Notes under the pieces: model-generated
Told to the model about the DNA's origin: nothing
The model's input: only the letters and a program-made list of their open reading frames with translations
The model's database searches: none
In this document: one piece after another, positions 36,794 through 62,040 of the stretch
How positions within the stretch are numbered: position 1 is the stretch's first letter
Layout: each line of letters starts with the position of its first letter
From: a virus
Reading direction: 5' to 3' (one strand)
Length of the DNA stretch: 64,000 bases
Virus record (IMG/VR): IMGVR_UViG_3300026189_000002
Location: 1-64,000 of that record
Position numbers and translations under genes: made by a program

Positions 36794-36805
36794 TAAGGAG
36801 TTAAC

Positions 36806-37411: not shown

Positions 37412-37431
37412 TAAAAATAAGGTAAAATGTT

Positions 37432-38031: not shown

Positions 38032-38048
38032 CAGTTGAGAGATAAGAG

Positions 38049-38567: not shown

Positions 38568-38569
38568 TT

Positions 38570-40867: not shown

Positions 40868-43351
40868 ATGTCTTTTACACTTGAGCAGCTTTCAGAGGGC
40901 ATCCGCGCTCGCCATCTAGGGGCTGAAAACAACAGATTAATTGAAAAATGGACCAAAACCGGTCTTTTACGCGGATTAAACGGTGTTAATCGAGAGTCTA
41001 TGGCTAGACTGCTTGAGAATCAGGCATCCCACGTTATTAAAGAGGCTTCTAGTCTTGGAAATGGTGGTAATGGTGCTTTAACAGCTTCTGGCGACATGAG
41101 AGGCTTCACTAATGTTGCTTTTCCTATCGTTAGAAGAGTATTTGGTGGCCTAATTGCAAATGATCTTGTTTCAATTCAGCCTATGAGTCTTCCTTCAGGA
41201 CTGCTCTTCTATCTTGACTACACAAGAGGCGGAGATCACGGCGTTGGAGATCCTATTAGCGGTCAGTCAAACTCAATATATGATAAAGGTTCTTCTTTAT
41301 ATAATAACCCAACGGGCTCTGCCATAAGAAAAGGTTCAAATGCAGTTGCTGGTCAATATGACCTTGCAGGAACTTCTTTTTCTAGAGCACACGGCAAGAG
41401 GTTGCTGGCTACTGCAGATATTGCAGCAGCTGGAACTGTTTTGGCTGACGGAACAATTGGTCGCGACATTGATGGCGATAACGGCGATAGAACAAAAACT
41501 TTGACAGCAACCGGAGCTGATGCACTTCTCCTTGATTTTGATCAGCAGGTTCTAGACACTGTTGCCGCTGGTGATAGTCATGCATCAGGTTCAAATCCAT
41601 TCTCCTTGCTCTGTGTTAAAACAGAGAACATGACGGATTTAGATCCAACCGCTATCAAGGGCGTTGCGCTACTAGCAAACTCTGGCTCTGCTGAGGGTAT
41701 TGGCGGCGGCGGTGGTCCTGCCTCTGCTACTGTTACAGTTTTAGCTGATTCGTTTGGCGATGCATTTGGAAATGGAAACGAATTAACTATAGGCATAGTT
41801 CTTCCTGCTGCTTTTGTTTCTCCTGAGGCTGGACAAAATGCCGCCGTTCCTGCAGCTCAGACCACAATAAGCGTAATCATTCAAGACTTCGGCGAATTAG
41901 GACCTGGTAATCCTGCACAGAATGCAATACACGTTGATTCTGCCGGAACAGCTAATATTAATGAAGTTGCAACACTTATAGCTAGTGCGCTTAACGGTAC
42001 AGAAGATGCTGCTATTGCTACAAATATAGCAGCTGCTCTAGCAAGTGGCGATGACGACATTGCAGATGGCCCAATTTTTGGTATTACGGCATCTGTGGAT
42101 GGTGCTGTTGTTACAATCTCTCAAGCTCGCGACGGAGATGAACATGCGGTTGGATTAACTGCTGCAGGCCAAGCTCACGATCAAGCTGCTCAAGTAACCC
42201 TAGGCGGTCTAGTCAACGGAAATCTTTCTGGTGGCGTTGATGATGGTACTCCTGTACACCTCAAGGTTGTTGGAAATGACTCAAAGGGTAATCCTTTCCA
42301 AGAGGGTGCTGGTTTGGTTAACATCAGAAGACTAAATGTTCTTGGTACAATGTCGGGCGGCGTCTTTACAGAGAATCCTTTCGCTGACGTAAAAAATGCA
42401 GCTACAGCAATCAGAATGGTTGTTGCAGGCGCTATACCAACAGAGACAATCGAAAAGGCAGAGCTCGATACTTCAGGTTCACTAGTTTACCCTAGAGCTT
42501 CGCAGCTTTCTACAGGAAACGGAGACACTCTAGTTGTTCCTTCTTTTGAGTCTGACTTTAACGGTGCAAACCCGCAGCCTTCAATCCCTGAGATTGACAT
42601 AAAGGTTGAGGCTGTTCCAGTTGTTGCTGAGACTAGAAAGCTAAGAGCAAGATGGTCTCCTGAATTAGCGCAGGACCTTAACGCTTATCACAGCCTAGAT
42701 GCAGAGGTTGAGTTGACTCAGATTCTATCTGAGCAGATTGCCCTAGAGATCGATAGAGAAATTCTCAGCGATCTTTTGACCGGCGCTTCTGCAGCAAACT
42801 TCTTCTGGTCAAGAGCTCCAGGTAAGTTTGTTAACAAGGAAACGGCTGAGGATGGCCCAGCGACCGCTAGCTTTACAGGTACGGTTCGTGAGTGGTATGA
42901 GACTCTAGTAGAGACGATCATAGACGTTGCCAATCAGATTCACAGAAAGACGCTAAGAGGTTCTGCGAACTTCATTGTCTGCGGACCTGATGTTGCGACG
43001 ATTTTAGAAGCTTCAGTTCTTTACAAGCCTAGCTACTCACTTGACGGTGACGGTCAGGTATCAGCGCCGATGGTTATTGGAGCTGATAGAGCAGGAACAT
43101 TGAGCAATAGATTTACAGTCTATAAGGACCCTTATTTCCCACGTAACAAGATCTTGGTCGGTTACAAGGGCGGAAGTTACTTAGAGACAGGTTTTGTATA
43201 CGCTCCTTATGTTCCACTTATCGTTACTCCTACAATCTTCCAGCCTGAAGACTTTACTCCTAGAAAGGGAGTGATGACTCGCTACGGTAAGAAGATGGTA
43301 AGAGCCGATTTTTACGGAACGGTTACTTGCTTGGATATGAATATCATCTAA
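40868..43351 (+). CDS. gp23: Major capsid protein paralog 1 (T4 gp23-like, large insertion, 827 aa)
   Basis: KWTKTGLL, AFPIVRRVF, LVSIQPMSLPSGLLFYLD, TRKLRARWSPELAQDLNAYH, EIDREIL, YAPYVPL, FTPRKGVMTRYG. Confidence 0.95.
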   Translation: MSFTLEQLSEGIRARHLGAENNRLIEKWTKTGLLRGLNGVNRESMARLLENQASHVIKEASSLGNGGNGALTASGDMRGFTNVAFPIVRRVFGGLIANDLVSIQPMSLPSGLLFYLDYTRGGDHGVGDPISGQSNSIYDKGSSLYNNPTGSAIRKGSNAVAGQYDLAGTSFSRAHGKRLLATADIAAAGTVLADGTIGRDIDGDNGDRTKTLTATGADALLLDFDQQVLDTVAAGDSHASGSNPFSLLCVKTENMTDLDPTAIKGVALLANSGSAEGIGGGGGPASATVTVLADSFGDAFGNGNELTIGIVLPAAFVSPEAGQNAAVPAAQTTISVIIQDFGELGPGNPAQNAIHVDSAGTANINEVATLIASALNGTEDAAIATNIAAALASGDDDIADGPIFGITASVDGAVVTISQARDGDEHAVGLTAAGQAHDQAAQVTLGGLVNGNLSGGVDDGTPVHLKVVGNDSKGNPFQEGAGLVNIRRLNVLGTMSGGVFTENPFADVKNAATAIRMVVAGAIPTETIEKAELDTSGSLVYPRASQLSTGNGDTLVVPSFESDFNGANPQPSIPEIDIKVEAVPVVAETRKLRARWSPELAQDLNAYHSLDAEVELTQILSEQIALEIDREILSDLLTGASAANFFWSRAPGKFVNKETAEDGPATASFTGTVREWYETLVETIIDVANQIHRKTLRGSANFIVCGPDVATILEASVLYKPSYSLDGDGQVSAPMVIGADRAGTLSNRFTVYKDPYFPRNKILVGYKGGSYLETGFVYAPYVPLIVTPTIFQPEDFTPRKGVMTRYGKKMVRADFYGTVTCLDMNII

Positions 43352-43371
43352 GCTTTTAGCTAGCGAAAATT

Positions 43372-43400
43372 AAAAGGGACCTTTTTGGTCCCTTTTTTTT
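43372..43400 (+). terminator. Rho-independent terminator after capsid gene 1
   Basis: AAAAGGGACC-TTTTT-GGTCCCTTTT hairpin followed by a T run. Confidence 0.9.
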
Positions 43401-43433
43401 ATTTTTAGTTTTTTCATAATACATTTTAACAAT

Positions 43434-43440
43434 ATACTTA
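43434..43440 (+). promoter_or_regulatory. Candidate late promoter motif ATACTTA for capsid gene 2
   Basis: The same heptamer lies before the scaffold gene (39122) and sheath 1 (49796). It sits just after the terminator. Confidence 0.5.
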
Positions 43441-43703
43441 GTTAAGTGGATATAAGCTGCAAATGGAGGCCATTAATGGATCCAGCGGCGAAAGATTTTT
43501 AAAAGAGGATCAACTCACAATAGTTGTCCAAGAAGTTAATACAGATTGAATTCCCGGCCTTCTGTGTTTGTTTAGTATGGGAATGGTAAGTTCTGTTATC
43601 TAACAGATCGCTCCGGCTGACGCCTAATGGTTGCGATGAAGATTTTGGGGCTTTCCGATTTTGTTCGAATGATGACATAATATATTTTTTAAGGAGTAAT
43701 AAA

Positions 43704-45677
43704 ATGTCAAACTTTTCATTGGAGCAGTTGACGGAGGGCATTCGCCAGAGACATCTCGGTAGCCAGAACCGTCAGCTCGTAGATAAGTGGGCCAGAACCG
43801 GTCTACTTCGTGGTTTAGAAGGCACAGGCCGTGAAAACATGGCTCGCCTACTAGAAAACCAAGCTTCACAGGTTCTTCGTGAGGCTTCTAGTCTTGGTGA
43901 CGGCGGCAACGGCGCTCTATCTGCTTCTGGCGATATGCGCGGTTTTACCAACGTTGCTTTCCCTATTGTTCGCCGTGTTTTCGGTGGATTGATTGCAAAC
44001 GATCTTGTTTCAATTCAGCCTATGAGCCTTCCTTCAGGACTGCTCTTCTATCTAGATTATACATCAGGCGCTGCTCACGGAGTAAGCCCCGCTCATGCAG
44101 ACGGCAGAAAAGCTGCTGCAGTTAATCCAGAGGGATCTTCTCTTTACAATGGCCCTTCAGGAGCCGGCGTCAGAACAGGCTCAACAGCAATAGGCGGAAA
44201 ATATGACTTAGGCGGTTTAGCCCAGTCTCGTAACATGAGACTAAATGAAGATCTTGATTTCCTAGGAACCGATGGAGAACCTGCAGCTTCTAGAAACTTT
44301 GTTTTCTTGGCCAATAATCATGATCTACCGGTTATACCTAATGCAAATGATCCCGGTCCCGGAGTTGGAACTACTGGTTTAGCCGGTAGACTTCTTCAGT
44401 TTGATGCACAGACAATTGCTGATATTGAAGCTGGACAAGAAGTCAGCTTCTTGCTTATACCGTTTACGGAGCATAACTTCAAAGACTGCGATTCAACTAT
44501 GGTTAAAGAAATCATGGTAGTTGATGATTCAGATGATGCTTCTTTGACTTATTTTCAAGCAGTTCCTACAACTCGCCAAGGTGCTTCCAACGCCTTAAAC
44601 ATTATGAAGCTTAATCAGCTTGTTAAGGTTGAAGATTCACACGGCACTGCCAAGTTGGATGCTCCCAAGATCGCCGCAATGACTCCCGCACCTTTAGCTT
44701 CTGTTGGAGACGATGATGTATGCTTGTTGGTTGCATGCCATAATGACGGTGGTGCTCTTACTAATGCCGATATGAATGATGGTGCTGGCGGTAAGCTAGG
44801 TGTTGTATATCCAGTTGCATCATCCTTATCTGCTGAAGACGGATCAAGCATAGTTGTTCCTTCTTTCGAGTCAGACATGGATGCTTCTAATCCGCAGCCT
44901 ACAATCCCAGAGATTGACATCAAGGTTGAGGCCGTTCCAGTTGTTGCTGAGACTCGCAAGCTACGTGCACGTTGGTCACCAGAGCTCGCTCAGGATCTTA
45001 ACGCTTATCACAGCCTTGACGCTGAGGTTGAGTTGACCCAGATCCTTTCAGAGCAGATTGCTTTGGAAATCGACCGCGAGATCCTTAGTGATCTTCTTAC
45101 TGGCGCTTCTGCAGCAAACTTCTTCTGGTCAAGAGCTCCAGGTAAGTTTGTTAACAAAGAAACAGCAGCTAATGTAGTAAGTTCCGGAGTTCCTTCTTTT
45201 ACAGGAACTGTTCGTGAGTGGTATGAGACTCTCGTAGAAACAATCATTGACGTTGCTAATCAGATTCACCGCAAGACGCTTCGCGGTTCTGCAAACTTTA
45301 TCGTTTGCGGTCCGGACGTTGCAACAATTCTTGAGGCATCTGTTCTTTACAAGCCTTCTTACACCCTTGATGGTGACGGACAGGTTTCGCAGCCAATGGT
45401 TATCGGTGCAGACCGCGCTGGTACACTAAGTAACCGCTTCACTGTTTACAAGGATCCTTACTTCCCAAGAAATAAGATTCTTGTTGGTTACAAGGGCGGA
45501 AGCTACTTGGAGACTGGATTCGTCTATGCTCCTTACGTACCATTGATTGTCACACCTACAATCTTCCAGCCAGAGGATTTCACCCCACGTAAGGGTGTCA
45601 TGACTCGCTACGGCAAGAAGATGGTTCGTGCTGACTTCTACGGCACAGTCACTTGCTTGGATATGAACATTATTTAA
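43704..45677 (+). CDS. gp23: Major capsid protein paralog 2 (T4 gp23-like, 657 aa)
   Basis: Same gp23 motifs as paralog 1. SD AAGGAG. Strong CGT/CGC codon bias. Confidence 0.95.
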   Translation: MSNFSLEQLTEGIRQRHLGSQNRQLVDKWARTGLLRGLEGTGRENMARLLENQASQVLREASSLGDGGNGALSASGDMRGFTNVAFPIVRRVFGGLIANDLVSIQPMSLPSGLLFYLDYTSGAAHGVSPAHADGRKAAAVNPEGSSLYNGPSGAGVRTGSTAIGGKYDLGGLAQSRNMRLNEDLDFLGTDGEPAASRNFVFLANNHDLPVIPNANDPGPGVGTTGLAGRLLQFDAQTIADIEAGQEVSFLLIPFTEHNFKDCDSTMVKEIMVVDDSDDASLTYFQAVPTTRQGASNALNIMKLNQLVKVEDSHGTAKLDAPKIAAMTPAPLASVGDDDVCLLVACHNDGGALTNADMNDGAGGKLGVVYPVASSLSAEDGSSIVVPSFESDMDASNPQPTIPEIDIKVEAVPVVAETRKLRARWSPELAQDLNAYHSLDAEVELTQILSEQIALEIDREILSDLLTGASAANFFWSRAPGKFVNKETAANVVSSGVPSFTGTVREWYETLVETIIDVANQIHRKTLRGSANFIVCGPDVATILEASVLYKPSYTLDGDGQVSQPMVIGADRAGTLSNRFTVYKDPYFPRNKILVGYKGGSYLETGFVYAPYVPLIVTPTIFQPEDFTPRKGVMTRYGKKMVRADFYGTVTCLDMNII

Positions 45678-45701
45678 GTTCATTTCTAGCAATCGCTAAT
45701 C

Positions 45702-45735
45702 GGAGGGGTCGTTATTCGGCCCCTCCTTTTTTTTT
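45702..45735 (+). terminator. Rho-independent terminator after capsid gene 2
   Basis: GGAGGGGTCG-TTATT-CGGCCCCTCC hairpin followed by T9. Confidence 0.92.
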
Positions 45736-45791
45736 CTTATTTTTAAATCTGATATTTATACTTGTCTATTTTTCTGTTTGAGGTTTATACT

Positions 45792-46316
45792 ATGTCTAGC
45801 GAACGTCTAAAGCGATTAAAGTGTCTTGTTGATGAATTGTCAGACAGGGATCGCCAACTAAAAAGCGATTCTGGCATGTTTGTCGATTTTTTTCAAAACT
45901 TTCCTATTCCTGTTACCATGTGGTCTTTAGACGAGTCGGGGAATATATTAGCTAAGCGTGGAAATGCAGTTGTTAAAGAAGCCGGTGCGACTTGCTTAGG
46001 CAATATGTTTTTAGACAATTATTCTAACGAATTTAAGGAAGCCCATAAAAAAGCATACGAAGGACAAAACGTAGAATTTTTTTCTGAGCTAACAGATAAA
46101 GTATATTACACTAGACTTGTTCCTAGAAAATCTGAAGATGAAATAATAGGACTAACAGGAATATCTTGGGATATAACTTCTAATTTTAAAATTTTACAAT
46201 CACTAAAATCCATAATTGAAATGTGCGATAATGAAAACTCTGAAAAAAAAGATATTAAAAAAATCGCTCAAGAATCAATAAACATCAGCAGAATAAAAAA
46301 ACTGTTAGGAGAATAA
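45792..46316 (+). CDS. Stand-alone PAS-domain protein
   Basis: FFQNFPIPVTMWSLDESGNI...HKKAYEGQNVEF...YYTRLVPRKSEDEIIGLTGISWDIT matches a PAS/PAC pattern. ATG 45792 follows GAGG. Confidence 0.7.
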   Translation: MSSERLKRLKCLVDELSDRDRQLKSDSGMFVDFFQNFPIPVTMWSLDESGNILAKRGNAVVKEAGATCLGNMFLDNYSNEFKEAHKKAYEGQNVEFFSELTDKVYYTRLVPRKSEDEIIGLTGISWDITSNFKILQSLKSIIEMCDNENSEKKDIKKIAQESINISRIKKLLGE

Positions 46317-46652
46317 ATGAGCGACAATAATCAAAACGGCTGGAATGAATATTCTAGGCTAGTATTAAAAGAGCTAGAAACTCTTGCAGATGGAATAGAG
46401 TCAGTAAAATCAGAACTTCAAGAAGTCAGACAAGAGATGGCAAAAATGCAAGTTAGAGAAGACCGCATGGAAGAAATAAAACAGTGGAAAGAAAGAGTTG
46501 ACGATGTTGCTTCTCCGATACAACTAAAAGAACTAGTTAACGAAGTAAGTTCCCTTAAAGAATTTAAAACTAGGGCTATAACAATTTTTGCAGTCGTACA
46601 GTTTATAATGGCGTTTTCTGTATGGTATGTTAAATTCTTTCCGACAGGTTAA
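46317..46652 (+). CDS. Coiled-coil protein with C-terminal transmembrane helix (holin-like candidate)
   Basis: Heptad-rich N-terminus. Hydrophobic AITIFAVVQFIMAFSVWYV tail. Confidence 0.6.
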   Translation: MSDNNQNGWNEYSRLVLKELETLADGIESVKSELQEVRQEMAKMQVREDRMEEIKQWKERVDDVASPIQLKELVNEVSSLKEFKTRAITIFAVVQFIMAFSVWYVKFFPTG

Positions 46653-46686
46653 TTTATGATCATATTTACTTTTATGGAACTGCAAC

Positions 46687-47853
46687 ATGGCTAATTTTTT
46701 AAACACACAAAATCCTACCCCTTTTGGATTTTTTGATTCTGATAGGGACTTTCAAGTAGAAGCAGACTCCATGGTTGTATTTGTTAAAAGAAAACTAGGC
46801 GACGATATACTCAGCGTAGAGTTAACTAATAAACAAATATGGGCTGGTTTCGAAGAATCTATGCTTGAATACAGCTCTATTATAAATCAATACCAAGCGA
46901 AATCTCAACTTTCTAATCTACTAGGTGAAGCCACAGGTTCTTTAGAAGGAATGGAGAATAAGTTTTTTAGAGAGAGCGTAGAGTTTATGCTTAGAAGAGC
47001 AGAGCCCTATGCTATGGAAGCCGGCTTAGGTGGATCTTTTAATATGATGTCTGGTTCTATAAAGCTAGAAAAAGGCAGGCAGGATTACGATATTTATACA
47101 GAGCTAAAAGATTCAGATGGAACTCCTCTTTTCGAAAGAGAAGATACGCCCGACTCAAAAATGAAAATAATGGAAGTATTTCACTTTTCTCCTCAGGCGG
47201 CATATAGATTTTTTGATTCTACATCGGCTATAAACTATTTAAATAACGAATTTTCTTTTGAGTCTTTTACGCCTGAAACTGTATTTTACGTTCTTCCAGT
47301 TTTTGAAGATGTTCTTAGAGGCGGGATGTTAGATATGTCTTCTAGGGTTAGAAGATCTAACTATTCATATAAAATAACAGGCACCAAGATAAGAATATAT
47401 CCAGTTCCAACTCAAGAAAACCCCCAGTCTTTATTTTTAAGAGTTCATTTTGCACCGAATGTTTCTAATCCATCGTTTAAAGACAGTTCTATTTCAGGGG
47501 TTAGTAATCTGTCGAATGTTCCTTACGGAAGAATACAGTTCAGCGGGATAAATTCAATAGGCAGACAATGGGTTAGACAATTTTGCTTAGCAAACTGCAA
47601 AGAGTTATTAGGCATGGTTAGATCTAAGTTTTCTAGCGTTCCAATACCCGGAAGCGATCTGCAGTTGAACGGAACTGATTTAATAGCTCAAGGAAGAGAA
47701 GATAAAGAATCACTGAGAGTAAAGTTGTCTGAAATGCTAGATAGTATGACTTACAGTAAGATGCTTGAAGACGAAGCTCAAGCTTCAGAAAACTTAACGA
47801 CTATACTAAAGAAATTGCCTATTCCCAATGGAAAAGCTATAATAGTAGGATAA
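46687..47853 (+). CDS. gp13: Neck protein (T4 gp13-like)
   Basis: VKRKLG...VELT, WVRQF.LA..KELLG.VRSKF..VP.PG..LQLNG. Confidence 0.8.
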   Translation: MANFLNTQNPTPFGFFDSDRDFQVEADSMVVFVKRKLGDDILSVELTNKQIWAGFEESMLEYSSIINQYQAKSQLSNLLGEATGSLEGMENKFFRESVEFMLRRAEPYAMEAGLGGSFNMMSGSIKLEKGRQDYDIYTELKDSDGTPLFEREDTPDSKMKIMEVFHFSPQAAYRFFDSTSAINYLNNEFSFESFTPETVFYVLPVFEDVLRGGMLDMSSRVRRSNYSYKITGTKIRIYPVPTQENPQSLFLRVHFAPNVSNPSFKDSSISGVSNLSNVPYGRIQFSGINSIGRQWVRQFCLANCKELLGMVRSKFSSVPIPGSDLQLNGTDLIAQGREDKESLRVKLSEMLDSMTYSKMLEDEAQASENLTTILKKLPIPNGKAIIVG

Positions 47854-47857
47854 AAAA

Positions 47858-48526
47858 ATGGCTAGGCTATTTATTACGGCTAGAGAAATAGATTTAATAT
47901 CTGACCTTACTAAAGAAGTAATCAAAGATGTTTCTGGCCAAAAAGTTTTTTATTACAGAGTAAGAGAAGACTTAACAGACGTTCACGAGATTTACGAAGA
48001 AGCAGAAAATAAAGTATTTGATCCACCAGTAGAAATAGAAGCCCGCGTAGAGTATCAGCCCGGAATAATAAAAACCAACAGGTTCGGCAACGAGGAAATA
48101 GATACGATAAATGTTTTTTTCCACGAGAGAGATATAATAGACAAAGATTTAGAAATAAGAATGGGCGATTACTTTAGTTACGGAGAAGTTTTTTTTGAAA
48201 TAACTAGCGCAGTAGTAGAGTCAAACATTTTTGGACAAATAGAGCACTCTATAGGCATAAAGGTTATAGGAAAGCAGGCAAGAAAAGGTGCTATAGACTT
48301 TACCGCTTTAGGTCCTACTCAAAATGGAATAGAGGAAAACAAAGTAGTACAAGAAGAATTTGAACAACAAAGAGGGCTAAAAGAAAATTCTTCAGGAGAA
48401 ACAAACGACGTTAGGGCTTTACAAGAAAAAGGAAAAGTTGATCCTGTTAAAGAGCCGGCTAAAGTAAAAAATCAAAAGACTAAAGATTCCGGAACAACAG
48501 AATCATTTTTTTACGGGGATAGATAA
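47858..48526 (+). CDS. gp14: Neck/head completion protein (T4 gp14-like)
   Basis: GQKVFYY...IYEEA...FD.PVEI...GDYF...FFEI. Follows gp13. Confidence 0.7.
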   Translation: MARLFITAREIDLISDLTKEVIKDVSGQKVFYYRVREDLTDVHEIYEEAENKVFDPPVEIEARVEYQPGIIKTNRFGNEEIDTINVFFHERDIIDKDLEIRMGDYFSYGEVFFEITSAVVESNIFGQIEHSIGIKVIGKQARKGAIDFTALGPTQNGIEENKVVQEEFEQQRGLKENSSGETNDVRALQEKGKVDPVKEPAKVKNQKTKDSGTTESFFYGDR

Positions 48527-49683: not shown

Positions 49684-49835
49684 AAAGAGTTATATTTTTA
49701 TTTGATATAACCGATTAAAGTTCCTGCTGAAAGATATTTAATATTAATGAGTGGATCCGTGCATAAGGTTCGTAGAATTTTTAACCTTTTGCTCAATACT
49801 TATTCAACGAAGATACACGCGCTCGAGGAGATATA

Positions 49836-52800
49836 ATGGCTGAGCAGACATTCAGATCACCGGGATTTTTTGAAAGAGAACTTGATAGATCGGCACCGAC
49901 TGTCACACCTAACAACGCTGTACCAGCGGGTATAATAGGAACTTCTGAGAAGGGTCCGGCCTTCGTTCCAGTTACGGTTGGAAATAAAAACGATTTCAAA
50001 AATAAGTTTGGTAACAACAACATTTATAGATTTGGTCCATACGCGGCAGAAGCCATGTTTGGAAAAAACCAAAAGGCTATTACCTTTATCAGGGTTTTAG
50101 GTGCAGGTGCAAACGATAGTGTAACTGATATATCAAACACATTAACACAAGGAACAGTTAAAAACGCGGGCTTTGTTTTAAAAGGAAATGATGGCCACAG
50201 TGATGCCCATGTTCCTCCTAGAAGCAATTTAGGGGACCCGAACTCACCAACGCAGACGCTGGCTAACTTGGGCTCTAGAAAAATAGGTTCGATACAGTTC
50301 TTGACTGCTATACACAGCGTAAATGACGCAGAGCCCCAAGGATTTCCTATTTTTACAGATAATAGAAGTACTCCTATGAATGCATCTGTACCTGACGGCG
50401 TCGCTGACGGAGATGTCTCACTTCTTCGTGCAGTATTAATGACTCCAAGCGGTTCTACATTTTTAGTCGGCGATCACGACGCAGCTACAGCAGACGACTA
50501 CTTTGATACAGCTAGCACCGGTGACGTGAATCAGTTTAAGCTTCTTTTGACTTCTTCTTCCGGGGCTGGACTTGGATCTGATTTAAATGCAGGGTCTAGA
50601 CTGTTTGATATATCTTTAGACCCTAACGCTGACAACTATATTTCTAGAGTATTAAACACGAACCCTCTTAAGTTTCAAGAAGAGGAGCACTTACTTTACT
50701 TAGATTTTGCTGTAGAAAATGAAATTGCTCCAGTTAAAACCGGTGGTGGTGCAGCAAATAATAGAAACGGGTCAACAGTAGCTTTGCTGATGGGTTCTAA
50801 TAACAATACCGCAGCCGGCGGAATTAGCAATTCTCCATTTAGGGATCTCTTTGGAAGATATGATACCAGATATCAAACGGCTAGAACATCCGCATTTATA
50901 TCTCAGCCCTATGGATCCAAAGAATACGAGCTTTTTCATTTTGAAACAATAGACGACGGAGCATCTGCATCAGATGAATTTAAGGTATCTATAGCAAACT
51001 TGAGAGCGTCTAACGATGAATCTAATCCTTATGGAACTTTTGAGGTTCAAATAAGGTCTTTTTCTGATTCAGACAAAGGACCAGAAATATTAGAGCGATA
51101 TCCTTTTTGTAACTTAAATCCATCTTCAGACGACTTCGTCGCAAAAAAGATTGGAGACTATAAAGCAAGATATGACTTTGATCAAGCTGATCCTGATGAG
51201 CGTAGAATAGTAGTAACAGGAAGATATCCCAATATGTCTTCTAGAGTAAGAATTGTAATCAACGAAGATGTATATAGTTCTGAAGTTCCAAGTAATGCTC
51301 TGCCTTTTGGCTTTAAAGGAATCCCGGTTTTAAGAACGTCGAATACTTTAACAGATAGGTCGGCTAATCCTTTACCAGGAGGAACAGCTGAAGCAGCAAC
51401 AGCTAGACTCGCTGCTCCTTCATCAGGAATAGAAGCTGACGAGTCGCCGTTAGCACTTCAGCACGCAGTAGTGCCACCTCTTCCGTTTACTTTTAAAGTA
51501 ACTAGAGGCGAACTTTCACAAGCAGCAGGCGCTGCTTATTTATTCACTGGTATGCCCAGCGATACAGAAAGAGTTGACAGTGCTTACTACTGGGGAGTTA
51601 AAACAACACGCCTCCCGCGCGCTGTAGACGTAGGTAGCGATGCAACTGCTGTTAGAAGATCGAATGAGAGTTCTATAATTAACCCGTTGGTTAGAGCATA
51701 TACTAAATTTCAAGGAATAGAAAAGCTTGATGTTTTAGTAACAGGCTCTTCTAACGTAGACGATTTTAATGATAATAAGTTTACATTGGCCAGAGTGGCT
51801 TTTTCACAAACTGGAACTGACTTAGGATCTATACAAACAGATTTTTCTGGTTCAGCTAGAGAGCACATGAAAGATGCTGCCTACATAAGAAACGGGGAAC
51901 CTAACACAGTAACTTATACAGTAAACGACATAGACGCGAATGGACGACTTAACGGCGCTGTAGATAAGACAGACCGGTTTACGATGGCTAGCCTTTTAGC
52001 TACCAGTTCAATTATATTTAATAGATTTTCTTCTTACGCAAAATTTACTAACATATTCTACGGCGGTTTTGACGGCGTTAACATCCTGGATAGAGACCAG
52101 ACGTTTTTTAGAGATAGAGCTCTATCTGCAGACTCTGACGGAAAAGCTAGAAAGGTAACTGGCGCTCCTGAAATAGTAGATAACGGCATAGCTGTTTCTA
52201 GTGCGACTGAAAATCCATTTGGATCAGGAAGAAAAAACAATTACGTCGCTTCTATTAATAGAGCGATCGATATCATGACTGACCCTACTGCTACTCGCGT
52301 TAATATACTCGCAATACCAGGAGTAAGAGAGCCCTTTGTTACTGATCACGCATTAGAAAAAACAAAGCAATACGGCCAAGCACTATACGTCATGGATAGC
52401 ATTCAGTACGATGAGCTAGGAAACAGGTTATACGACGACTCCGCCGCTCGCCCGGACGTAAGAGAGACATCAGAAAAATTTGAGGCTAGAGGACTAGACA
52501 ATAATTACGGAGCTACTTATTTTCCAGACGTTTTTATAAGCGACCAAGATAACAACCAAGTCGTAAAAATGCCATCTAGTATCCCAGCTCTGGCTACTCT
52601 ATCAAATACGGACGATTTAAGAGCACCGTGGTTTGCTCCTGCTGGTTTTGCTAGAGGGGCATTAGATTTTGTTGTCAACGTAGACGTAAGATTATCTTCA
52701 GAAGACAGAGACGTCTTATACGACTCTAGAATCAACCCAATTGCGGTTTTTCCAAGAGCAGGCTTCGTAATTTTTGGTCAAAAAACTCTGCAGCAAGCTA

Positions 52801-53126
52801 AATCTGCTCTAGATAGAGTTAACGTCAGAAGATTAATGGTAGAAGTAAAAAGAAAGATTGTAGGAATTGCCCTAAATCTTCTTTTTGAGCCTAACAATGG
52901 AACCACGAGAGCAACATTTATTTCTGAAGCAGCGAGCGCTTTAGCAAATATACAACTCGGTGCAGGCATAGAGTCATTTAATATTGTTATGGATGATTCA
53001 AATAATTCACAGGAGGACATAGATTCAAACCGCCTAAACGGTAGAATCGAAGTTGTTCCTACTCGTGCCGTAGAGTTTATAGCAATCGACTTTGTTATAA
53101 CAAATAGCGGCGTAGAGTTTAATTAA
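49836..53126 (+). CDS. gp18: Tail sheath protein paralog 1
   Basis: FRSPGFFERELD, KGPAFVP, GGFDG, PWFAPAG..RG, LY..RINPI, FGQKTL, RVNVRRL, FEPN, EFIAIDF. Confidence 0.93.
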   Translation: MAEQTFRSPGFFERELDRSAPTVTPNNAVPAGIIGTSEKGPAFVPVTVGNKNDFKNKFGNNNIYRFGPYAAEAMFGKNQKAITFIRVLGAGANDSVTDISNTLTQGTVKNAGFVLKGNDGHSDAHVPPRSNLGDPNSPTQTLANLGSRKIGSIQFLTAIHSVNDAEPQGFPIFTDNRSTPMNASVPDGVADGDVSLLRAVLMTPSGSTFLVGDHDAATADDYFDTASTGDVNQFKLLLTSSSGAGLGSDLNAGSRLFDISLDPNADNYISRVLNTNPLKFQEEEHLLYLDFAVENEIAPVKTGGGAANNRNGSTVALLMGSNNNTAAGGISNSPFRDLFGRYDTRYQTARTSAFISQPYGSKEYELFHFETIDDGASASDEFKVSIANLRASNDESNPYGTFEVQIRSFSDSDKGPEILERYPFCNLNPSSDDFVAKKIGDYKARYDFDQADPDERRIVVTGRYPNMSSRVRIVINEDVYSSEVPSNALPFGFKGIPVLRTSNTLTDRSANPLPGGTAEAATARLAAPSSGIEADESPLALQHAVVPPLPFTFKVTRGELSQAAGAAYLFTGMPSDTERVDSAYYWGVKTTRLPRAVDVGSDATAVRRSNESSIINPLVRAYTKFQGIEKLDVLVTGSSNVDDFNDNKFTLARVAFSQTGTDLGSIQTDFSGSAREHMKDAAYIRNGEPNTVTYTVNDIDANGRLNGAVDKTDRFTMASLLATSSIIFNRFSSYAKFTNIFYGGFDGVNILDRDQTFFRDRALSADSDGKARKVTGAPEIVDNGIAVSSATENPFGSGRKNNYVASINRAIDIMTDPTATRVNILAIPGVREPFVTDHALEKTKQYGQALYVMDSIQYDELGNRLYDDSAARPDVRETSEKFEARGLDNNYGATYFPDVFISDQDNNQVVKMPSSIPALATLSNTDDLRAPWFAPAGFARGALDFVVNVDVRLSSEDRDVLYDSRINPIAVFPRAGFVIFGQKTLQQAKSALDRVNVRRLMVEVKRKIVGIALNLLFEPNNGTTRATFISEAASALANIQLGAGIESFNIVMDDSNNSQEDIDSNRLNGRIEVVPTRAVEFIAIDFVITNSGVEFN

Positions 53127-53164
53127 AATAGTATTTAAGGAATGAGGATTTTAGGAGACACTAA

Positions 53165-56100
53165 ATGGCAGAGTTAACATTCAAGAGTCCAGGAGTAAGC
53201 ACAAGAGAGATAGACCATTCGGGTCCTACTCCACAATCACCCACGGGTGTACCGGCCGGAATTATAGGCCCCTCAGTTAGAGGGCCTGCATTTGTTCCAG
53301 TCACTGTCGCAACATTTCAGGACTTTGTTAACAAGTTCGGTAACGCTGATGGTAAAAAGTTTGGTCCTATAGCCATGAATGAGTGGTTAAACAATGCTGG
53401 ATCAGGAACTTATGTTAGAGTCTTAGGCGTTGGAGATGGAAAAAAGAGAAACGCTGATGGAACTGTAACAAACGCAGGCTTTGTTGTTGGATCTGATAAG
53501 CCGCAAGAAAACGGTTTGATAGGAAACAACGAGTATGCAGAAAGCGGAAGCGTTCCAGCAGTTACAGCTAAAGCCCACCTAGAAACAGCTGGAGTTGCTA
53601 GTGCTGAAGTAGACATAGACGTTGGTAATGCAGACAACGCCCGCTCAACTTTAACACTAGAGGATACAGAAGGCAATTCTTCTGAGTTTATGTTTGTTAA
53701 TTCTGAGTCTCCTCGGGTTGTATTAACTTCCGGTACAGCAATTCAGGCCGACGACCCTATAGACGCTCTCGCCGGCGAGAATCCCGCAGCCGGGGATACA
53801 GCTCAAGCGAATGATGCAGGCCGTATTGCAATAGCTCCTATAGGAACAGGGGGATCTGCACCAACCGCATCTATAAGACTAAAGCAAAGCGATCCCGCAA
53901 GTTTAGACGCACTGGCGGTTGACGACGGATCTTCTTTCGACATTGATATACCAGCTGCTGCTCCAAGCTCGGTCTCTGGAACGCTTACTATTAAGTTTGT
54001 AGCTGAAGCCAGCGTTACTTTAGACCAAGCAACCGATGGCGAGTTGAATACAGTTATAATAGTAACAGACAAGGATGACGGAGCCGACGGCTCGGAAGAA
54101 AACGCATTAAGATTAATCAAAGCAATTTTAGAAGGAACTGACATTACCACGGTGCAGCGCGAAGATGGCGTTACTAATTTCGATAATGCTTCAGTTCTTT
54201 ACGCTTCTACAGGCGCTGTCGGTAGATTAGGACAAAACGATTACGGCCTAAGCGCTACGATAACAAGCCAAGTGCCTAACGGGGCCGGCGATGCAGTCGA
54301 GACTGGTGCTTCTATTGCAATTGCTTCTGTAGTAACCAGTACTTTGGCTCATAGAATAAGCATACAGACTGCGAATAACGACGCTGTACTGTCTATGGGG
54401 CCTGATGCTGCTGGATTACAAGCAGTAGAAGCCGCTGAAGCGACCACTCAAAACCTGGTTGGCGCTGTTATTACAAACGCAAACTTGCTAAGCGCAATAA
54501 AAGATGCTGTAAACGCTCAAGCCGGATTAAATATTACAGCCGGAAATGTAGACGGTAATGTCCTTCAGTTAGATCAAGACACTGCAGGCGACACTACAAC
54601 TGCAATCGGTCAGACTGGGACTTTCGATGGAGACGATACTTTGATTGTTGCCGGCGGAACAAAAGCTGCACCTGCAGAAAATGCAGCAAATCGATTTGGC
54701 GGTGGCGACGACGGAGTAGCTGCTGCAGATTTATACGCCGGAAGAACATACGTTTTAGGCGCATTTATGGTAGACGCCAACAGCAGCGGTCTGCTAGCTG
54801 ACGCTGGAATTACCAATAACGCCGGCGGAGGTGCCCCTGTAGCTCGTGGTATTTTAATGTGCCCAGCAGGCGTTATACCTTCAATAAAGTCTGTTAGAAA
54901 TTCAAATACGACCCCACAAGGAGTTCACACACAGGATTTAACAGCAGCCAATAGAAATCCAACCAATCACGATTCTCCTGGGTCTTACCCTAGGTTTGGA
55001 CCTAACTTTATGGCAGGAAATGAAGTAGGGGATTTAAATGATGATCTAACTACTTTTGACCTTTACCTTAACGGACTAAAGATTACGGGCAACGAATATA
55101 TTAACAGCCGCACTTTAAAAATCTCCTTTGATCCAGATCAGCCCTCTTATTTTGTTAACAAATTAAATACTGATCCAAGCAAGATCGAAGAGATGGGCCA
55201 CTATCTCTATATGCACTTTGATATAAGCAAGCAATTTGCAACAATTGAAAACAGCGACGGCGTCAATGCAAATGACGACAATTCTGGAAGGCATGCCGTT
55301 TTCTGTTTACCTACTCAACAGCTTAGGGATACAAGCGTACCAAGCGCTAACGACCTTATCGGTGTTCCTAACCTGGAGTCTTTTGAGGATAGATATTCAA
55401 CTGCAGTTTCACCTTTTGTTATATCTCAAAAGTTCGGTGGAAGAAATAGAGACCTGTTTAGGTTCCACGCTTTAGATGATGGCGCTGTTGGGGCTGGAGC
55501 TTATAAGATAACCATAGAAAATATAACATCCTCCAGATCGGGCGCTAATCCTTTTGGAAAATTTGACGTATTGGTAAGAAAGTTTGACGATACGGATAAA
55601 ACCCCGTTTGTTTTAGAAGCTTATAGGGGCGTCAATATCGACCCTTCATCGGATCGTTATATAGCAAAAGTCATAGGCGATACTCACGCCTATTACGATT
55701 TTGATAAGAGTGCCGCAAGTCAAAAACTAGTTATATCGGGAAGATATGATAACAACTCTTCTTATGTACGCGTAGAAGTTTCTGACGATTTACTAAACAA
55801 CAACATAGATAATACGGCTTTACCATTTGGGTTTCGAGGGTTAAACCACATGGTTTTTGACGGAACTGCTAAAGTAAATGCAAACGCAGGCGGAAATACC
55901 GGCTGTTCATCTATATTGGATCACGGTGATTGCGACACCGGTATCAAAGTAGACTTTCAGACTGTAAAGATGCCTCCTGTGCCTATGAGAGAAAGATTGT
56001 CGGTTGGAACAGGCGTAAAGAAATCACTGGATTCTGATTTAACGTGGGGAGTTCAGTTTGAAGTTAAACCTAATCCTGCCGAGCCTAATGCTGGAAAGAA

Positions 56101-57451
56101 GATAGATGCATCTATACTTTCTCACGTAAGATTTATGCCATCTTTTGATACAACGGGATTAAAGTCTTCTGTAGGAAATAACGCTGGAGTCGCAGACATA
56201 GCAGGGGCTATATTGGATTCCGATCGTTATAACAACAATAAATTCTCTTTAGAAAATATAGCTGTTATACTCTCAGGGGATAAACCTGACAAAGAGCTTT
56301 GGGCTTATAGCAGATATATTAGAAACGGCGTTAACCCAGGAACTCTAGACGATGATGAGGGCGTTGCTCAAGTAGCTAGGTTAATAATCCCTTCGGATCT
56401 AGAAAACAATGCTGTTACAAAATACATGAAGTTTACACTACCTTTGACTGGTGGATTTGACGGAACAGATAAATTTGTTAAGTCTAAGGTTGAATTTACT
56501 AATGAAGCTGTTCACAACGAATCTTCAGATCCTAATGAAAATTCTGTAAGCTCTGCCACTATAGCCTCTTATAGAAAAGCAATTGACGTTATGGAAGAAA
56601 GAGCGGATGTTGATATTCAGTTGCTTTCTGTTCCTGGAATAAGGAATCCAAAGGTAACAGATTACGCAATGGAATCTGTAGAAAGACGATTCGACGCGCT
56701 GTATATTATGGATATAGAAGAAAGAGACGCGCAAAATAATGTTATTCTTTCTGATGCGCCTGTTTCTGTTTCAAACACGGTTGCTGGATTTTTAAATAGA
56801 GATATCGACAGCTCTTTTGCTGCCGCGTATGCTCCGGATGTTATTATAAAAGATCCAGGAACCGGCACAAACGTAAAATGTCCCCCGTCCGTTGCAGTAC
56901 TGGGAGCTATCAGCTTAAACGATACCATAAAACATCCTTGGTTTGCGCCTGCTGGATTTAACAGGGCGTCTTTACCTTCTACAGTTGAAGTAAATACTAG
57001 GCTCAACAGATCAAATTTAGATGATCTATATGATGCAAAAATAAACCCAATAACTAAGTTCCCTGCAGCTGCTGGTACAACTCAGGCTAACCCTGTTATA
57101 TGGGGCCAAAAGACTCTTCTTGCAGCTCCGTCTGCTTTAGATAGAATAAATGTAAGAAGGCTTTTAATAAATGTAAGAAGAAAAGTCAGGGCTGAAGCAA
57201 ACAAAATATTGTTTGAACCAAATAGAGAAAGTACACTAGCACAGTTTAGCGCTGCGGTTAATCCGATATTAGCTGATATACAAGCTAATCAGGGTGTCGA
57301 TAGATTTAAGGTCGTTATTGATACTTCAACGACAACTCAAGCGGATGTAGAGAATAATACCATTAGGGGCAAAATATTCTTGCAGCCGACTAGATCGCTA
57401 GAATTTGTTAGTTTAGACTTTGTTGTTAAAAATGCAGGCGCTGACATTTAA
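53165..57451 (+). CDS. gp18: Tail sheath protein paralog 2 (large N-proximal insertion)
   Basis: FKSPGVSTREID, RGPAFVP, PWFAPAG, INPI, WGQKTL, RINVRRL, FEPN, EFVSLDF. Confidence 0.93.
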   Translation: MAELTFKSPGVSTREIDHSGPTPQSPTGVPAGIIGPSVRGPAFVPVTVATFQDFVNKFGNADGKKFGPIAMNEWLNNAGSGTYVRVLGVGDGKKRNADGTVTNAGFVVGSDKPQENGLIGNNEYAESGSVPAVTAKAHLETAGVASAEVDIDVGNADNARSTLTLEDTEGNSSEFMFVNSESPRVVLTSGTAIQADDPIDALAGENPAAGDTAQANDAGRIAIAPIGTGGSAPTASIRLKQSDPASLDALAVDDGSSFDIDIPAAAPSSVSGTLTIKFVAEASVTLDQATDGELNTVIIVTDKDDGADGSEENALRLIKAILEGTDITTVQREDGVTNFDNASVLYASTGAVGRLGQNDYGLSATITSQVPNGAGDAVETGASIAIASVVTSTLAHRISIQTANNDAVLSMGPDAAGLQAVEAAEATTQNLVGAVITNANLLSAIKDAVNAQAGLNITAGNVDGNVLQLDQDTAGDTTTAIGQTGTFDGDDTLIVAGGTKAAPAENAANRFGGGDDGVAAADLYAGRTYVLGAFMVDANSSGLLADAGITNNAGGGAPVARGILMCPAGVIPSIKSVRNSNTTPQGVHTQDLTAANRNPTNHDSPGSYPRFGPNFMAGNEVGDLNDDLTTFDLYLNGLKITGNEYINSRTLKISFDPDQPSYFVNKLNTDPSKIEEMGHYLYMHFDISKQFATIENSDGVNANDDNSGRHAVFCLPTQQLRDTSVPSANDLIGVPNLESFEDRYSTAVSPFVISQKFGGRNRDLFRFHALDDGAVGAGAYKITIENITSSRSGANPFGKFDVLVRKFDDTDKTPFVLEAYRGVNIDPSSDRYIAKVIGDTHAYYDFDKSAASQKLVISGRYDNNSSYVRVEVSDDLLNNNIDNTALPFGFRGLNHMVFDGTAKVNANAGGNTGCSSILDHGDCDTGIKVDFQTVKMPPVPMRERLSVGTGVKKSLDSDLTWGVQFEVKPNPAEPNAGKKIDASILSHVRFMPSFDTTGLKSSVGNNAGVADIAGAILDSDRYNNNKFSLENIAVILSGDKPDKELWAYSRYIRNGVNPGTLDDDEGVAQVARLIIPSDLENNAVTKYMKFTLPLTGGFDGTDKFVKSKVEFTNEAVHNESSDPNENSVSSATIASYRKAIDVMEERADVDIQLLSVPGIRNPKVTDYAMESVERRFDALYIMDIEERDAQNNVILSDAPVSVSNTVAGFLNRDIDSSFAAAYAPDVIIKDPGTGTNVKCPPSVAVLGAISLNDTIKHPWFAPAGFNRASLPSTVEVNTRLNRSNLDDLYDAKINPITKFPAAAGTTQANPVIWGQKTLLAAPSALDRINVRRLLINVRRKVRAEANKILFEPNRESTLAQFSAAVNPILADIQANQGVDRFKVVIDTSTTTQADVENNTIRGKIFLQPTRSLEFVSLDFVVKNAGADI

Positions 57452-57469
57452 TAGTTAAAAGGGTTATCT

Positions 57470-60400
57470 ATGTCAGAGTTCCCGCTAAAACACTCGGGAG
57501 TAACAGCCCGCTTTACAACAGGCAGTGTAAATACAGGTTCGTCTAACGTAATCACCGGTATTCCGTACTGTTTGATTGGCACTTCTGTATCCGGCCCTGC
57601 TTTTGTTCCGCTTTCTTTTGGAAATAAAGAAAAATTTAGCCAGATTCACGGAGATTTAGTTTCCGACCACTTGGCTCAAGTTACTACTGACGAGCTGTTA
57701 AATCTAGAACAAGATGTGACTTTTGTTAGAATATTAGGCACCGGTGACGGCAAACCTAGAAACTTAGATGGAACAGTAACCAACGCTGGATTTATTGTAG
57801 GCGAAAATCAAATTCAAAACAACGTAGTAATAGATACTAGGCCTACAATTAACAATAATCAACAGATGGATGAAATAGTAGAAACAAATACTCTGCTAGA
57901 AAGATCTTTAGGCAATAATAAATTTTCTCATTCTCCAATAAACACTGCTGAGGCATCAAATTCTCACGGTAGAACTTATATATTAGGCTGTTTTTTAAAG
58001 CCTTATATAATAAGCAGGGTCGCCGGTGGTGGCTTGTTTGATCTTCCTGATAATAGCAAAATAAATACTTTTACCAGGTCTGGAATAGACATGAGTAAAA
58101 AGTCTGCTCCTATAATCAGAGCAGTCATAATGGCGGCATCAGGTGTTTCACTTTCAGTATCATCTTCTATTGAAAATACTCATAACGAACCAATAGATCA
58201 AGGGGTTACTGGGATATTTGGAATAGGTAAAGACGCAGGCCATCAAATTGGCAATGTAGATAAAGGCCCGGGTGGTGCTCTTCAAGAATTTTGTTTGTTT
58301 CAAAATGGGCATAAAGATGCTTCAAAAAGAAAATTAAATCTCAGCTTTGATAAAACAAATGATAGATTTTTTGCCTCTATATTGAATAGAGATCCAGATA
58401 GGCTTGAAGAAGAAGGCCACTATCTTTATACTAGCTATGATGACGTATATTTTTCTGATGCAGTCGTCGACAATGCTTACACAAATGCTACTCCTAAAGC
58501 ACCGGAGGTTCAAGGAGATCAAGAGCTGCAGGGGATTGAAGATGGAGAATATTCGGTTTTTTGTCTAAGAACAAATTCTGGAATTGGAGCGCAGGCTCAA
58601 CAAAAAGTATTAATTGCTCATGACGACGGCTTAAATGGAGAAACTATAATCATTACTATCCCTGCTAATATTCACGGTCAGGGAATACCCGCTCAAGCTA
58701 CGCCAATAACTATTAAAATAAAAACTGTAGAAGCAGTAATTGAAGATTTAGATGGGCTAACAAATACTATCGTGGTCTCTATTGCAGGTTTGCAAGGCGT
58801 AGCCCTTGCAAGAATAGAAATAGCACAGAGAATCAAAGAAGTCTTAAACAGAAAACTAGATGATCAAGGAAATCCAGATTTTCTTCACCATGTTCATAAT
58901 TTGCCGGCAGAACTAACTTCTAGTGAATCCCTAATAAAAGGCATAATAGCAGAACACGATCCTGCGGTAGACACAGTTAATTTAATACTAAAGGCATTAG
59001 GCAACGGAATATACGGAAACTCTATTTTAATAGAAACTTCTGATGAATCAAAGATAGCCGCTCAAGGATCCACTTTTGAGGGCGGCATAGATAATCAGCC
59101 AGGATCTTCCGGAACAACTTCCACAGAAGACTATTTGGGTATTCCTAATTTTGAAAAATTTAGAAATAGATATACTCATCCTAAAACCCCGTTTTTTGTT
59201 TCCCAGACAGTTAATGGAAGAGTATACGATCTTTTTAGGTTACACGCCGTATCAGATGGAGAGCATAAGGAGCCAATAGTTGCAACTATAAAACAAATAA
59301 GCCCTTCGGCTTCTTCATTTCAGAACAGAATAGAAAATACTTCAGACCGTCAAGTTAATGTAGATTTATATGGAACGTTTTCTTTAGAGATATCTGGGTC
59401 GATTATAGGCGATCCTATACTGGCAGATAACTTAAGTTTAGACCCTAGTAGTCCGGACTTTATCTCTAGAAGAATAGGCGACGTGCACTTGTATCACAAC
59501 CTTGATTCTTCTGAAAAAACTGTAGTAGCTGGAAAATATCCAGCTTTCTCTAATGATCCTCAGACTTTTGGAAAAATAAGAGTAGAAGTAAACCCGGCAA
59601 TCGAAAGAAAAGAAATACCACCAGAGTGTTTACCCTTCGGCTTCAGAGGAATGCCGCACTTAGCAACGGCAGGAAATACAGATGCTAATTCAAACGGCAT
59701 TTTTTATTTGCAAGATGATTGCCCTGCGGTCATTAAAAATATGCTAAATTCAGTAACAGAACCTCCTTTCCCATTAAGAGACAGAATTTGGGTAGATTTA
59801 AACTCTGAACCATCTGTAACAAACGTTAGTTGGGGAGCAGCAACTCAAGTATTAGGTACAAACAAAAACTTGTTTAACAACATGTCTTTTACAAGATATT
59901 TTCCAGATTTTAATACTAACATTCAAAATCCATGGATTGTTGATAATACTAGCAAAACAATTCTCGGTGGCAAAGAAATTAATAACGACAAATTTAATAA
60001 TAATGGATTTTCTTTAGAGAAAATATTAGTTCCTTGCAATGCAGATGAAGACGGCGTAAAGTCTATATTAGGCACATTTACAGACGGTGATATTACTAAC
60101 CCCAGGGATCTTCCAGGATACTTTTGGAAAGCGGCCAGGTATATTAGGGATGGTATAGACGACGGCGGTATTCTTCTCAACTATCCAAATAAAGACGACA
60201 CGCGATTTAATTTAAGTGCCGGTAATTCTACAAAGTTTCTAGAATTAAAAGACTTATTAAACACCGGTGTCCAAACATTGGCAAAATTTTCTTGTTTGTT
60301 TTATGGCGGATTTGACGGATTAAATATTTTTGACAAGCAAAAAAGAAATATGACAAATTTGGCTCTGTATGATGAGCAGTCAGAGTTAAGCCATAATAAA

Positions 60401-61551: not shown

Positions 61552-62040
61552 ATGCCAAATACTTTACCAGTATCGGACATGCTGCCAAATAAGTTTGAGC
61601 CCAAAAGAAAGTTTAGATGGGTTTTTGCTATTGAAGGTATAGACGCTTTTCTTATGAAGACAGCAAACCGTCCGACTATAAATACTGAAGAGATTACAAT
61701 TCCTTACATGAACCACACAAGGTATGTAGCTGGAAAGACTACTTTTGATACAGTTTCAGTCACTCTTCACGACCCGATTGCTCCTTCAGGCGCACAGCAG
61801 GTTATGGAATGGGTAAGAACCCACTTTGAATCTGTTTCAGGTCGAGCTGGTTATGCTGATTTTTACAAGCGCGATTGTCAATTAAAGCTTCTTGATCCTG
61901 TTGGAACCGTTGTTGAACTATGGGACCTAAAAGGAACTTTTATAACAAGCGCCGGCTTTGGAGATTTAGATTACGGTGCTAGTGATCCTACCGAAATATC
62001 TCTAACGCTACGATTTGATAACTGTATACTCCAGTATTAA
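61552..62040 (+). CDS. gp19: Tail tube protein (T4 gp19-like)
   Basis: FEPKRKFRW, AGK, LHDPIAPSGAQQVMEW, KLLDPVGTVVELW.LKG, GDLDY. Confidence 0.93.
   Translation: MPNTLPVSDMLPNKFEPKRKFRWVFAIEGIDAFLMKTANRPTINTEEITIPYMNHTRYVAGKTTFDTVSVTLHDPIAPSGAQQVMEWVRTHFESVSGRAGYADFYKRDCQLKLLDPVGTVVELWDLKGTFITSAGFGDLDYGASDPTEISLTLRFDNCILQY

Follow-up and report, generated by a model that had tools for sequence, protein, structure and literature searches.

We describe here a putative accessory module of ~150 to 180 residues that appears to be encoded in both a capsid gene and a tail sheath gene within a 64,000-nucleotide stretch of viral DNA (positions 1 to 64,000 of IMG/VR record IMGVR_UViG_3300026189_000002; hereafter, the window). 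The capsid gene specifies MCP1, one of two gp23-type major capsid proteins (MCPs) in the window, and the sheath gene specifies the third of three tandem tail sheath paralogs (sheaths 1 to 3). The reading that best accounts for the data, and one that we consider likely, is that the module is a shuffled accessory domain of head and tail lattice proteins: it would have been put into two unrelated lattice-forming virion proteins at independent sites, one copy residing in the insertion-domain region of MCP1 and the other in sheath 3. An earlier sequence-only reading of the window had named five genes, the boundaries of their inserts, and a set of motifs, all of which were borne out by the present analysis.

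Inserts in the capsid and sheath proteins

MCP1 (827 residues; positions 40868 to 43351, plus strand) and MCP2 (657 residues; 43704 to 45677, plus strand) both matched the Pfam capsid family PF07068 (E = 8e-77 and 2e-76; 259.6 and 258.3 bits, respectively, against a curated cut-off of 24.4), and both matched T4 gp23 chains in the PDB at an E value of ~1e-31; MCP1 additionally matched PHROG 138. Positions 41702 to 42247 of the MCP1 gene (residues 279 to 460) stand out as a clean insertion when MCP1 is compared with MCP2 and with ~100 related capsid proteins, which are ~620 to 690 residues long, and outside the insertion MCP1 matches the consensus of the capsid family. Alignment with MCP1 confirmed that MCP2 lacks the insert. 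Counted with its glycine-rich border, the module copy spans positions 41690 to 42250 (plus strand; residues ~275 to 460), runs from GIGGGGG to LSGGVDDG, and lies within the region that matches the insertion domain of T4 gp23. A word-indexed search found the capsid insert in two other capsid proteins, P0006 and P0007, giving three carriers overall among the ~100 related capsid proteins.

Sheath 1 (1,096 residues; 49836 to 53126, plus strand) and sheath 2 (1,428 residues; 53165 to 57451, plus strand) matched PHROG 23 (E = 6e-54 and 3e-49) and scored above the 26.9-bit cut-off of the Pfam family Phage_sheath_1C (31.6 and 30.7 bits), as expected of contractile sheath proteins. Sheath 3 (1,331 residues; 57470 to 61465, plus strand) is divergent and is called a sheath solely through PHROG 23 (E = 2e-5) and a 272-bit phmmer score to sheath 2. 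Its module copy (58586 to 59092, plus strand; residues 373 to 541) follows VFCL and extends from SGIG to FEGGID. The insert of sheath 2, of ~400 residues (residues ~120 to 525; nucleotides 53522 to 54739, plus strand), precedes GRTYVLG and has no counterpart in four full-length orthologs of 964 to 1,035 residues. Neither of these two sheaths has the insert of the other and sheath 1 has neither, exactly as the sequence-only reading had described. Orthologs of sheath 3 were found at loci L082 and L001, and L082 (IMG/VR 3300012936_000531) encodes the same three sheaths with orthologous inserts in sheaths 2 and 3.

The module is bordered by glycine-rich sequence, SGIG or GIGGGGG at its start and [LF]xGG[VI]D[DN] at its end. 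These linker-like borders, the independent sites in MCP1 and sheath 3, and three further sheath sites in related phages (see below) agree with the earlier proposal of a self-contained, plug-in module. In a separate observation, MAFFT paired VFCLRTNSGIG of sheath 3 with LLCVKTENM...SGSAEGIGGGGG of the MCP just upstream of the module (58553 to 58600 and 41600 to 41720); the pairing may be due to chance, or the transferred piece may start a few residues earlier than marked.

Relatedness of the capsid and sheath 3 inserts

The relationship between the two inserts was recovered through their relatives and not within the window alone. Composition-adjusted BLASTP aligned the sheath 3 insert of the window, searched against the whole of P0007, to a segment inside the insert of that capsid protein (E = 9e-6; 39% identity over 54 residues), and the sheath 3 insert of L082 matched P0006 over 154 residues (E = 0.002). 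A hidden Markov model (HMM) of the three capsid inserts, searched against 2,390 open reading frames (ORFs), retrieved the L082 sheath 3 insert with an E value of 4.8e-6, and the sheath 3 insert of the window ranked next. Conversely, an HMM of the two sheath 3 inserts found MCP1 of the window as its top non-self match among 2,390 ORFs (E = 0.0022). The profile-profile comparison that the sequence-only reading had called for was also significant, with hhalign aligning the capsid-insert and sheath-3-insert profiles over 105 columns with 89% probability (P = 2e-6). The five inserts, from capsid proteins and from sheath 3, align collinearly over their whole length and have in common the motifs TxTITIPA, PAxxTxITxxIK, NxIxV, IAxxIxxxLN, GI/LTA, and xGGxD. 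On these sequence comparisons, the same module is common to the capsid protein and sheath 3 at independent sites, and the earlier claim that the two inserts are related was upheld.

Occurrence in other phages

We mined 169 sheath homologs for inserts, and the module was detected in three of them at sites different from that of sheath 3. At locus L086 it stands before GRTFFLG in a sheath-2-type host, at L091 it stands after GRTYFLG..DAG, again in a sheath-2-type host, and at L123 it follows LPFGxxG in a sheath that is more distant. Each of the three hosts is a sheath homolog. The three inserts match one another by BLASTP (E = 4e-8 and 1.4e-4), and their joint profile aligned by hhalign to the profile of the capsid and sheath 3 inserts over 131 columns with 92.7% probability (P = 4.3e-7). 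A weaker, borderline candidate (P = 0.002) was found at L032 in a sheath-1-type paralog, the type that is free of inserts in the window. Inserts at L014, L107, and L121 look alike by eye but were not significant (P = 0.02 to 0.3). The module is therefore present in sheaths at at least four sites and in one capsid protein while missing from orthologs, a pattern of promiscuous occurrence. Because it is found at several sheath sites as well as in a capsid protein of related phages, we regard it as a shuffled domain and not as a trait of one host protein. Since copies in sheaths occur widely across the clade and those in capsid proteins only rarely, the direction of transfer was probably from sheath to capsid.

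Database scans returned few additional copies. A scan of IMG/VR for the sheath 3 insert recovered the L082 contig only, and a scan of Joint Genome Institute metagenomes recovered the same contig again. The word-indexed search gave no matches to the sheath 2 or sheath 3 inserts, and tblastn with the capsid and sheath 3 inserts gave none among 50,697 phage records. At L157, a 1,413-residue ORF (12288 to 16526) with a weak match to a tape measure family (PHROG 4372, E = 2e-8) was matched at residues 136 to 209 by the HMM of the L086, L091, and L123 modules (E = 2.9e-4); this ORF may be another host of the module, or the match may have arisen by chance.

The insert of sheath 2

The sequence-only reading had also matched segments of the sheath 2 insert to the module. 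We compared a two-sequence profile of sheath 2 residues ~240 to 400, from the window and L082, with module profiles of increasing depth. The hhalign P value fell from 0.0055 with three module sequences to 0.0021 with five and 7.9e-5 with eight, and the N-terminal half of the module alone gave a P value of 1.9e-5. All of these matches were in the register proposed by that reading. In comparison, the best true negative among 43 two-sequence control windows from the same phage pair reached P = 0.045, and the best of 340 single-sequence windows reached P = 0.013. The module-like part comprises residues ~254 to 365 (53924 to 54259, plus strand; DGSSFDIDIPAA..TLTIKF..NTVIIV..ALRLIKAILEG..GLSATI). 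The C-terminal part of the insert (LLSAIKDAVNAQ, GLNITAG, FGGGDD) resembles the C-terminal half of the module by eye, with no significant support (P = 0.03 to 0.13), and parts a and c of the insert were likewise not significant. These data point to a probable third copy of the module, diverged and either partial or rearranged, within the sheath 2 insert. The earlier match holds for residues ~254 to 365, where the motifs quoted in that reading lie (P = 2e-5 to 8e-5).

Sequence family and predicted fold

Profile searches of the module against Pfam, PHROGs, and PDB sequences gave no family match. With Pfam thresholds relaxed to an E value of 10, the window segments and six module members gave no hit to Ig, FN3, or Big_2, so membership of the Ig-like families finds no support at the sequence level. 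The sole Pfam match among module members was to DUF5035, in a single member (E = 0.043). Two AlphaFold models, both of low confidence, agree on the order of elements only (four strands, followed by one or two helices and then by three or four strands), with a predicted helix of ~20 residues among eight strands. In the ESM Atlas, both inserts led to the same weak nearest clusters (scores of 0.85 to 0.90), which we treat as a lead only. The module is predicted to represent a family uncatalogued in the libraries searched and probably of the alpha/beta class.

Several other identities were considered. A resemblance to a Flagellin_IN-like motif found no support in Pfam. When 1.84 billion proteins were searched exhaustively by HMMER with the sheath 3 insert, the only matches were two tandem-repeat proteins, one with seven repeats of ~110 residues and the other with three of ~46 residues, which were judged spurious. 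An intein or other self-splicing element was rejected on the basis of the junctions, which are not intein-like (GIGGGGG or SGIG at the start, GG[VI]D[DN] at the end), and of the lack of any Pfam Hint or intein match. No direct repeats of the kind left by target-site duplication flank the inserts. A diversity-generating retroelement was also looked for, and neither an RVT_1 match nor a DNA repeat of any insert was found in the 113-kb record, which is estimated to be 34% complete.

Divergence, location, and possible role

In every pair of orthologs compared, the inserts have diverged further than their flanks. Between MCP1 and P0006, identity is 67% in the insert and 93% in the flanks, and between MCP1 and P0007 it is 50% and 94%. 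For the window and L082 proteins, the corresponding values are 36% and 71% in sheath 2 and 29% and 53% in sheath 3.

The locations of the inserts were assessed by alignment to T4 proteins. The variable region of the MCPs falls between stretches aligned to T4 gp23 residues 62 to 144 and 227 to 478, an interval that would hold the equivalent of the gp23 insertion (I) domain, which forms protrusions at the capsid surface (PMC9546572). Sheath 1 aligns to T4 gp18 residues 2 to 59 and 462 to 651 (the latter with E = 5e-30), and all of the sheath insertion sites lie between these two parts. Additional sheath domains are described in PMC9230969 as pointing away from the tube. By analogy, the host sites would lie in non-core, outward-facing parts of both proteins. 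Given these outward sites, the faster divergence of the module relative to its hosts, and its dispensability in close orthologs, the module is most likely a surface add-on that would coat head and tail. It may serve as a weak adhesin toward polymers of the host or the environment, a role proposed for the Ig-like domains of phages, or it may instead stiffen the lattices through additional intersubunit contacts. A peripheral role is favored by its rapid divergence and by the many different sites of insertion.

Age of the capsid and sheath duplications

The sequence-only reading had further held that the module always occupies a duplicate gene, so that an insert-free paralog remains. Over their C-terminal core of 283 codons, MCP1 and MCP2 are 92.6% identical in protein and 78% identical in DNA; where the residues are identical, the third codon position is the same in 53% of cases. 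Because protein identity is high while DNA and third-position identity are low, the two genes appear to be old duplicates under very strong purifying selection and not products of recent gene conversion; the pattern would fit co-assembly into one lattice. Among the loci with sheath matches, 65 had two sheath ORFs and 7 had three, counts that are limited by the ends of the loci, and most had no insert. Examples of tandem sheath paralogs among loci L002 to L188 are found at L080 (15301 to 21561), L171 (2881 to 12306), and L084 (5254 to 13055). The possession of two or three sheath paralogs thus appears, from this survey, to be a clade-wide trait that predates the inserts and is independent of them. 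A second phage, at L014 (9161 to 13250), likewise has two gp23-type capsid genes in tandem (625 and 654 residues), neither with the large insert. The claim of an obligatory spare copy was not sustained: sheath paralogy is clade-wide and mostly insert-free, the MCP duplication is old, and the L032 candidate stands in a sheath-1-type paralog.

Weighing of alternative explanations

Several results weigh against a module shared by head and tail. Within the window, BLASTP of the capsid insert against the sheath 3 insert was not significant (E = 2.4), comparisons of the inserts with sheath 2 gave E values of 0.4 to 0.9, Smith-Waterman scores of all insert pairs lay less than 2 standard deviations above those of shuffles (z = 1.1 for capsid versus sheath 3), and phmmer with --max found no cross-hits. 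When gap penalties were softened, each of the two inserts, capsid and sheath 3, was the best non-self window in the proteome for the other, yet with a z score of only 2.7. The capsid-sheath link hinges on the sequences of five to eight relatives and on E values from small, targeted databases; HMMER did not bridge the L086, L091, and L123 group and the capsid and sheath 3 group (E = 0.48), which were joined by profile-profile comparison only. Detection of the module in sheath 2 is confined to its N-terminal half, which leaves ~290 residues of that insert unexplained. AlphaFold gave a mean predicted local distance difference test score (pLDDT) of 49.9 for whole MCP1 (39-row alignment) and 49.3 for the sheath 3 insert (5 rows), and fold searches remained at noise level, with Foldseek E values of 0.05 or more against the PDB and BFVD, VIA-align Z scores of 4.8 or less, and no significant neighbor. 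Because both models are poor, the fold, the proximity of the termini, and the surface exposure are inferences. The failures within the window, together with the exhaustive search that reached its two repeat proteins only via TITVTI-like strands, would be expected if the resemblance were compositional or convergent, reflecting Ala/Gly/Ile/Thr-rich strand-and-helix patterns in unrelated small alpha/beta inserts. We consider this very improbable, since the BLASTP match to P0007 was composition adjusted, the profile-profile matches extend over 105 to 131 collinear columns at P = 2e-6 and 4e-7, the HMM matches are reciprocal top non-self matches, and the controls from the same proteome, described above for sheath 2, reached only P = 0.013 (single-sequence windows) and P = 0.045 (two-sequence windows).

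A shared module could also be genuine and serve mainly as structural cement, binding neighboring subunits of a large capsid and a long sheath. The I domain of T4 gp23, at the equivalent place, rests on a neighboring subunit and strengthens the capsomer (PMC9546572), a tail-cementing function has been proposed for additional sheath domains (PMC9230969), the record may be a piece of a ~300-kb genome, and a cement protein family is among the ESM Atlas neighbors found for the capsid insert (template modeling score of 0.57, a lead only). Specific lattice contacts should be conserved, however, whereas the module diverges far faster than its flanks, and its four or more sheath sites across phages are hard to fit to one fixed contact; a mainly cementing role is possible but, in our judgment, on the unlikely side. 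The sequence-only reading had favored a modular system dedicated to display, with the module tolerated only in a duplicated gene while an insert-free paralog keeps the lattice working. In the window, the module-bearing genes do have adjoining insert-free paralogs (MCP2 and sheath 1), and at L086 and L091 a sheath 2 that carries the module is accompanied by a sheath 1 free of inserts. The clade-wide and mostly insert-free sheath paralogy and the old MCP duplication argue against such a system, as does L123, whose module-bearing sheath is accompanied by no second sheath ORF within its 14.9-kb locus. In addition, no exchange machinery was found in the 113-kb record, which is estimated to be 34% complete: cassettes, template repeats, second DNA copies of the inserts, and reverse transcriptases were looked for in it and not found. 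We therefore regard a dedicated display system as improbable. We also find it rather doubtful, if slightly less so, that the module is an uncatalogued alpha/beta family, distinct from Ig-like and small all-beta inserts, whose restriction to some of the co-assembling paralogs (MCP1 and not MCP2, sheaths 2 and 3 and not sheath 1) makes the head and tail lattices mosaic and sets a sub-stoichiometric display density. The capsid pair and the two or three sheath paralogs do raise the question of whether the lattices are mosaic, and, if they were, this would be a way of tuning surface decoration undescribed for tailed phages. A shuffled accessory domain at the virion surface remains the reading that we prefer.

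Genomic context

The source record is an IMG/VR virus fragment of 113,062 bases with a CheckV completeness estimate of 34%, and the phage genome may therefore be about 300 kb, that of a jumbo phage. Among cultured phages, the closest relatives are Flavobacterium phage immuto, Microcystis phage Mel-JY01, and Rhodothermus phage RM378, which, judged by sequence, places this uncultured, T4-type myovirus in the Far-T4 neighborhood (PMC4360716). Far-T4-type phages rank among the commonest aquatic myoviruses (PMC4360716). The plus strand of the window carries the two gp23-type MCP genes, neck genes, the three tandem sheath paralogs, a tail tube gene (61552 to 62040; PHROG 4542, E = 3e-32), and a baseplate hub gene. 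To our knowledge, the virions of Far-T4-type phages are almost unstudied.

Directly upstream of a 575-residue ORF and MCP1, five small ORFs (162 to 201 residues) abut one another at positions 36305 to 39103; two of them were checked, and neither had a PHROG match. At L012 and L073, small ORFs at a similar place gave repeated weak matches to the module profiles (E = 0.07 to 0.9). Downstream of the baseplate hub gene, a 1,714-residue ORF begins at position 63296 and continues past the end of the window at 64000 to about position 68437 of the full record. This ORF gave the next-highest soft-gap scores to the sheath 3 insert (71 to 73, against 75 for MCP1) and may carry beta-rich accessory domains of its own.

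Comparison with known systems

The closest precedent is that of the phage Ig-like domains (I-set, FN3, and Big_2; Fraser et al. 2006, as cited in PMC9230969). Like these, the module is a small, self-contained unit that recurs in unrelated head and tail proteins of the virion, is patchy among close relatives, seems to have been exchanged between proteins and phages, and would be surface exposed and accessory. Unlike these, it matched none of the Pfam Ig, FN3, or Big_2 families, has roughly double the length (150 to 180 residues versus ~80 to 100 for the all-beta Ig-like sandwich), is predicted at low confidence (pLDDT of ~49 to 50) to include a ~20-residue helix, and is found inside loops of lattice proteins, whereas the Ig-like domains are appended at ends.

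The I domain of T4 gp23 and gp24 is likewise an additional domain at the corresponding place in a gp23-type capsid protein, and it protrudes at the surface (PMC9546572). However, MCP1 and MCP2 both have a variable region there, and the module is a further insertion of ~180 residues that is common to sheaths. [quoted passage not shown] According to that paper, additional sheath domains are commoner in large-genome phages, are mostly Ig-like beta-sandwiches, and have been proposed to serve in adhesion or stabilization; a term search of that text returned no report of sharing with capsid proteins. The module differs in that one sequence family can be followed across at least four positions in sheaths and also to a capsid protein. 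Extracellular contractile injection systems (Afp2/3/4 and Pvc2/3/4), which are among the PDB matches of sheath 1, similarly have several tandem sheath paralogs, but they are not phages and their paralogy is not known to be tied to inserted accessory domains, so they are relevant to the three-sheath context only.

Accessory-domain shuffling between virion proteins is thus a known phenomenon; the novelty lies in the domain family and in its having been traced through a gp23-type capsid protein and several sites in sheaths. If the module moved between capsid and sheath lattices, the shuffling of virion domains extends beyond Ig-like folds. The module would also point to places where gp23-type capsid proteins and sheath proteins tolerate insertions, knowledge that could be useful for phage display engineering, and it offers a concrete handle on what surface add-ons do for uncultured phages.

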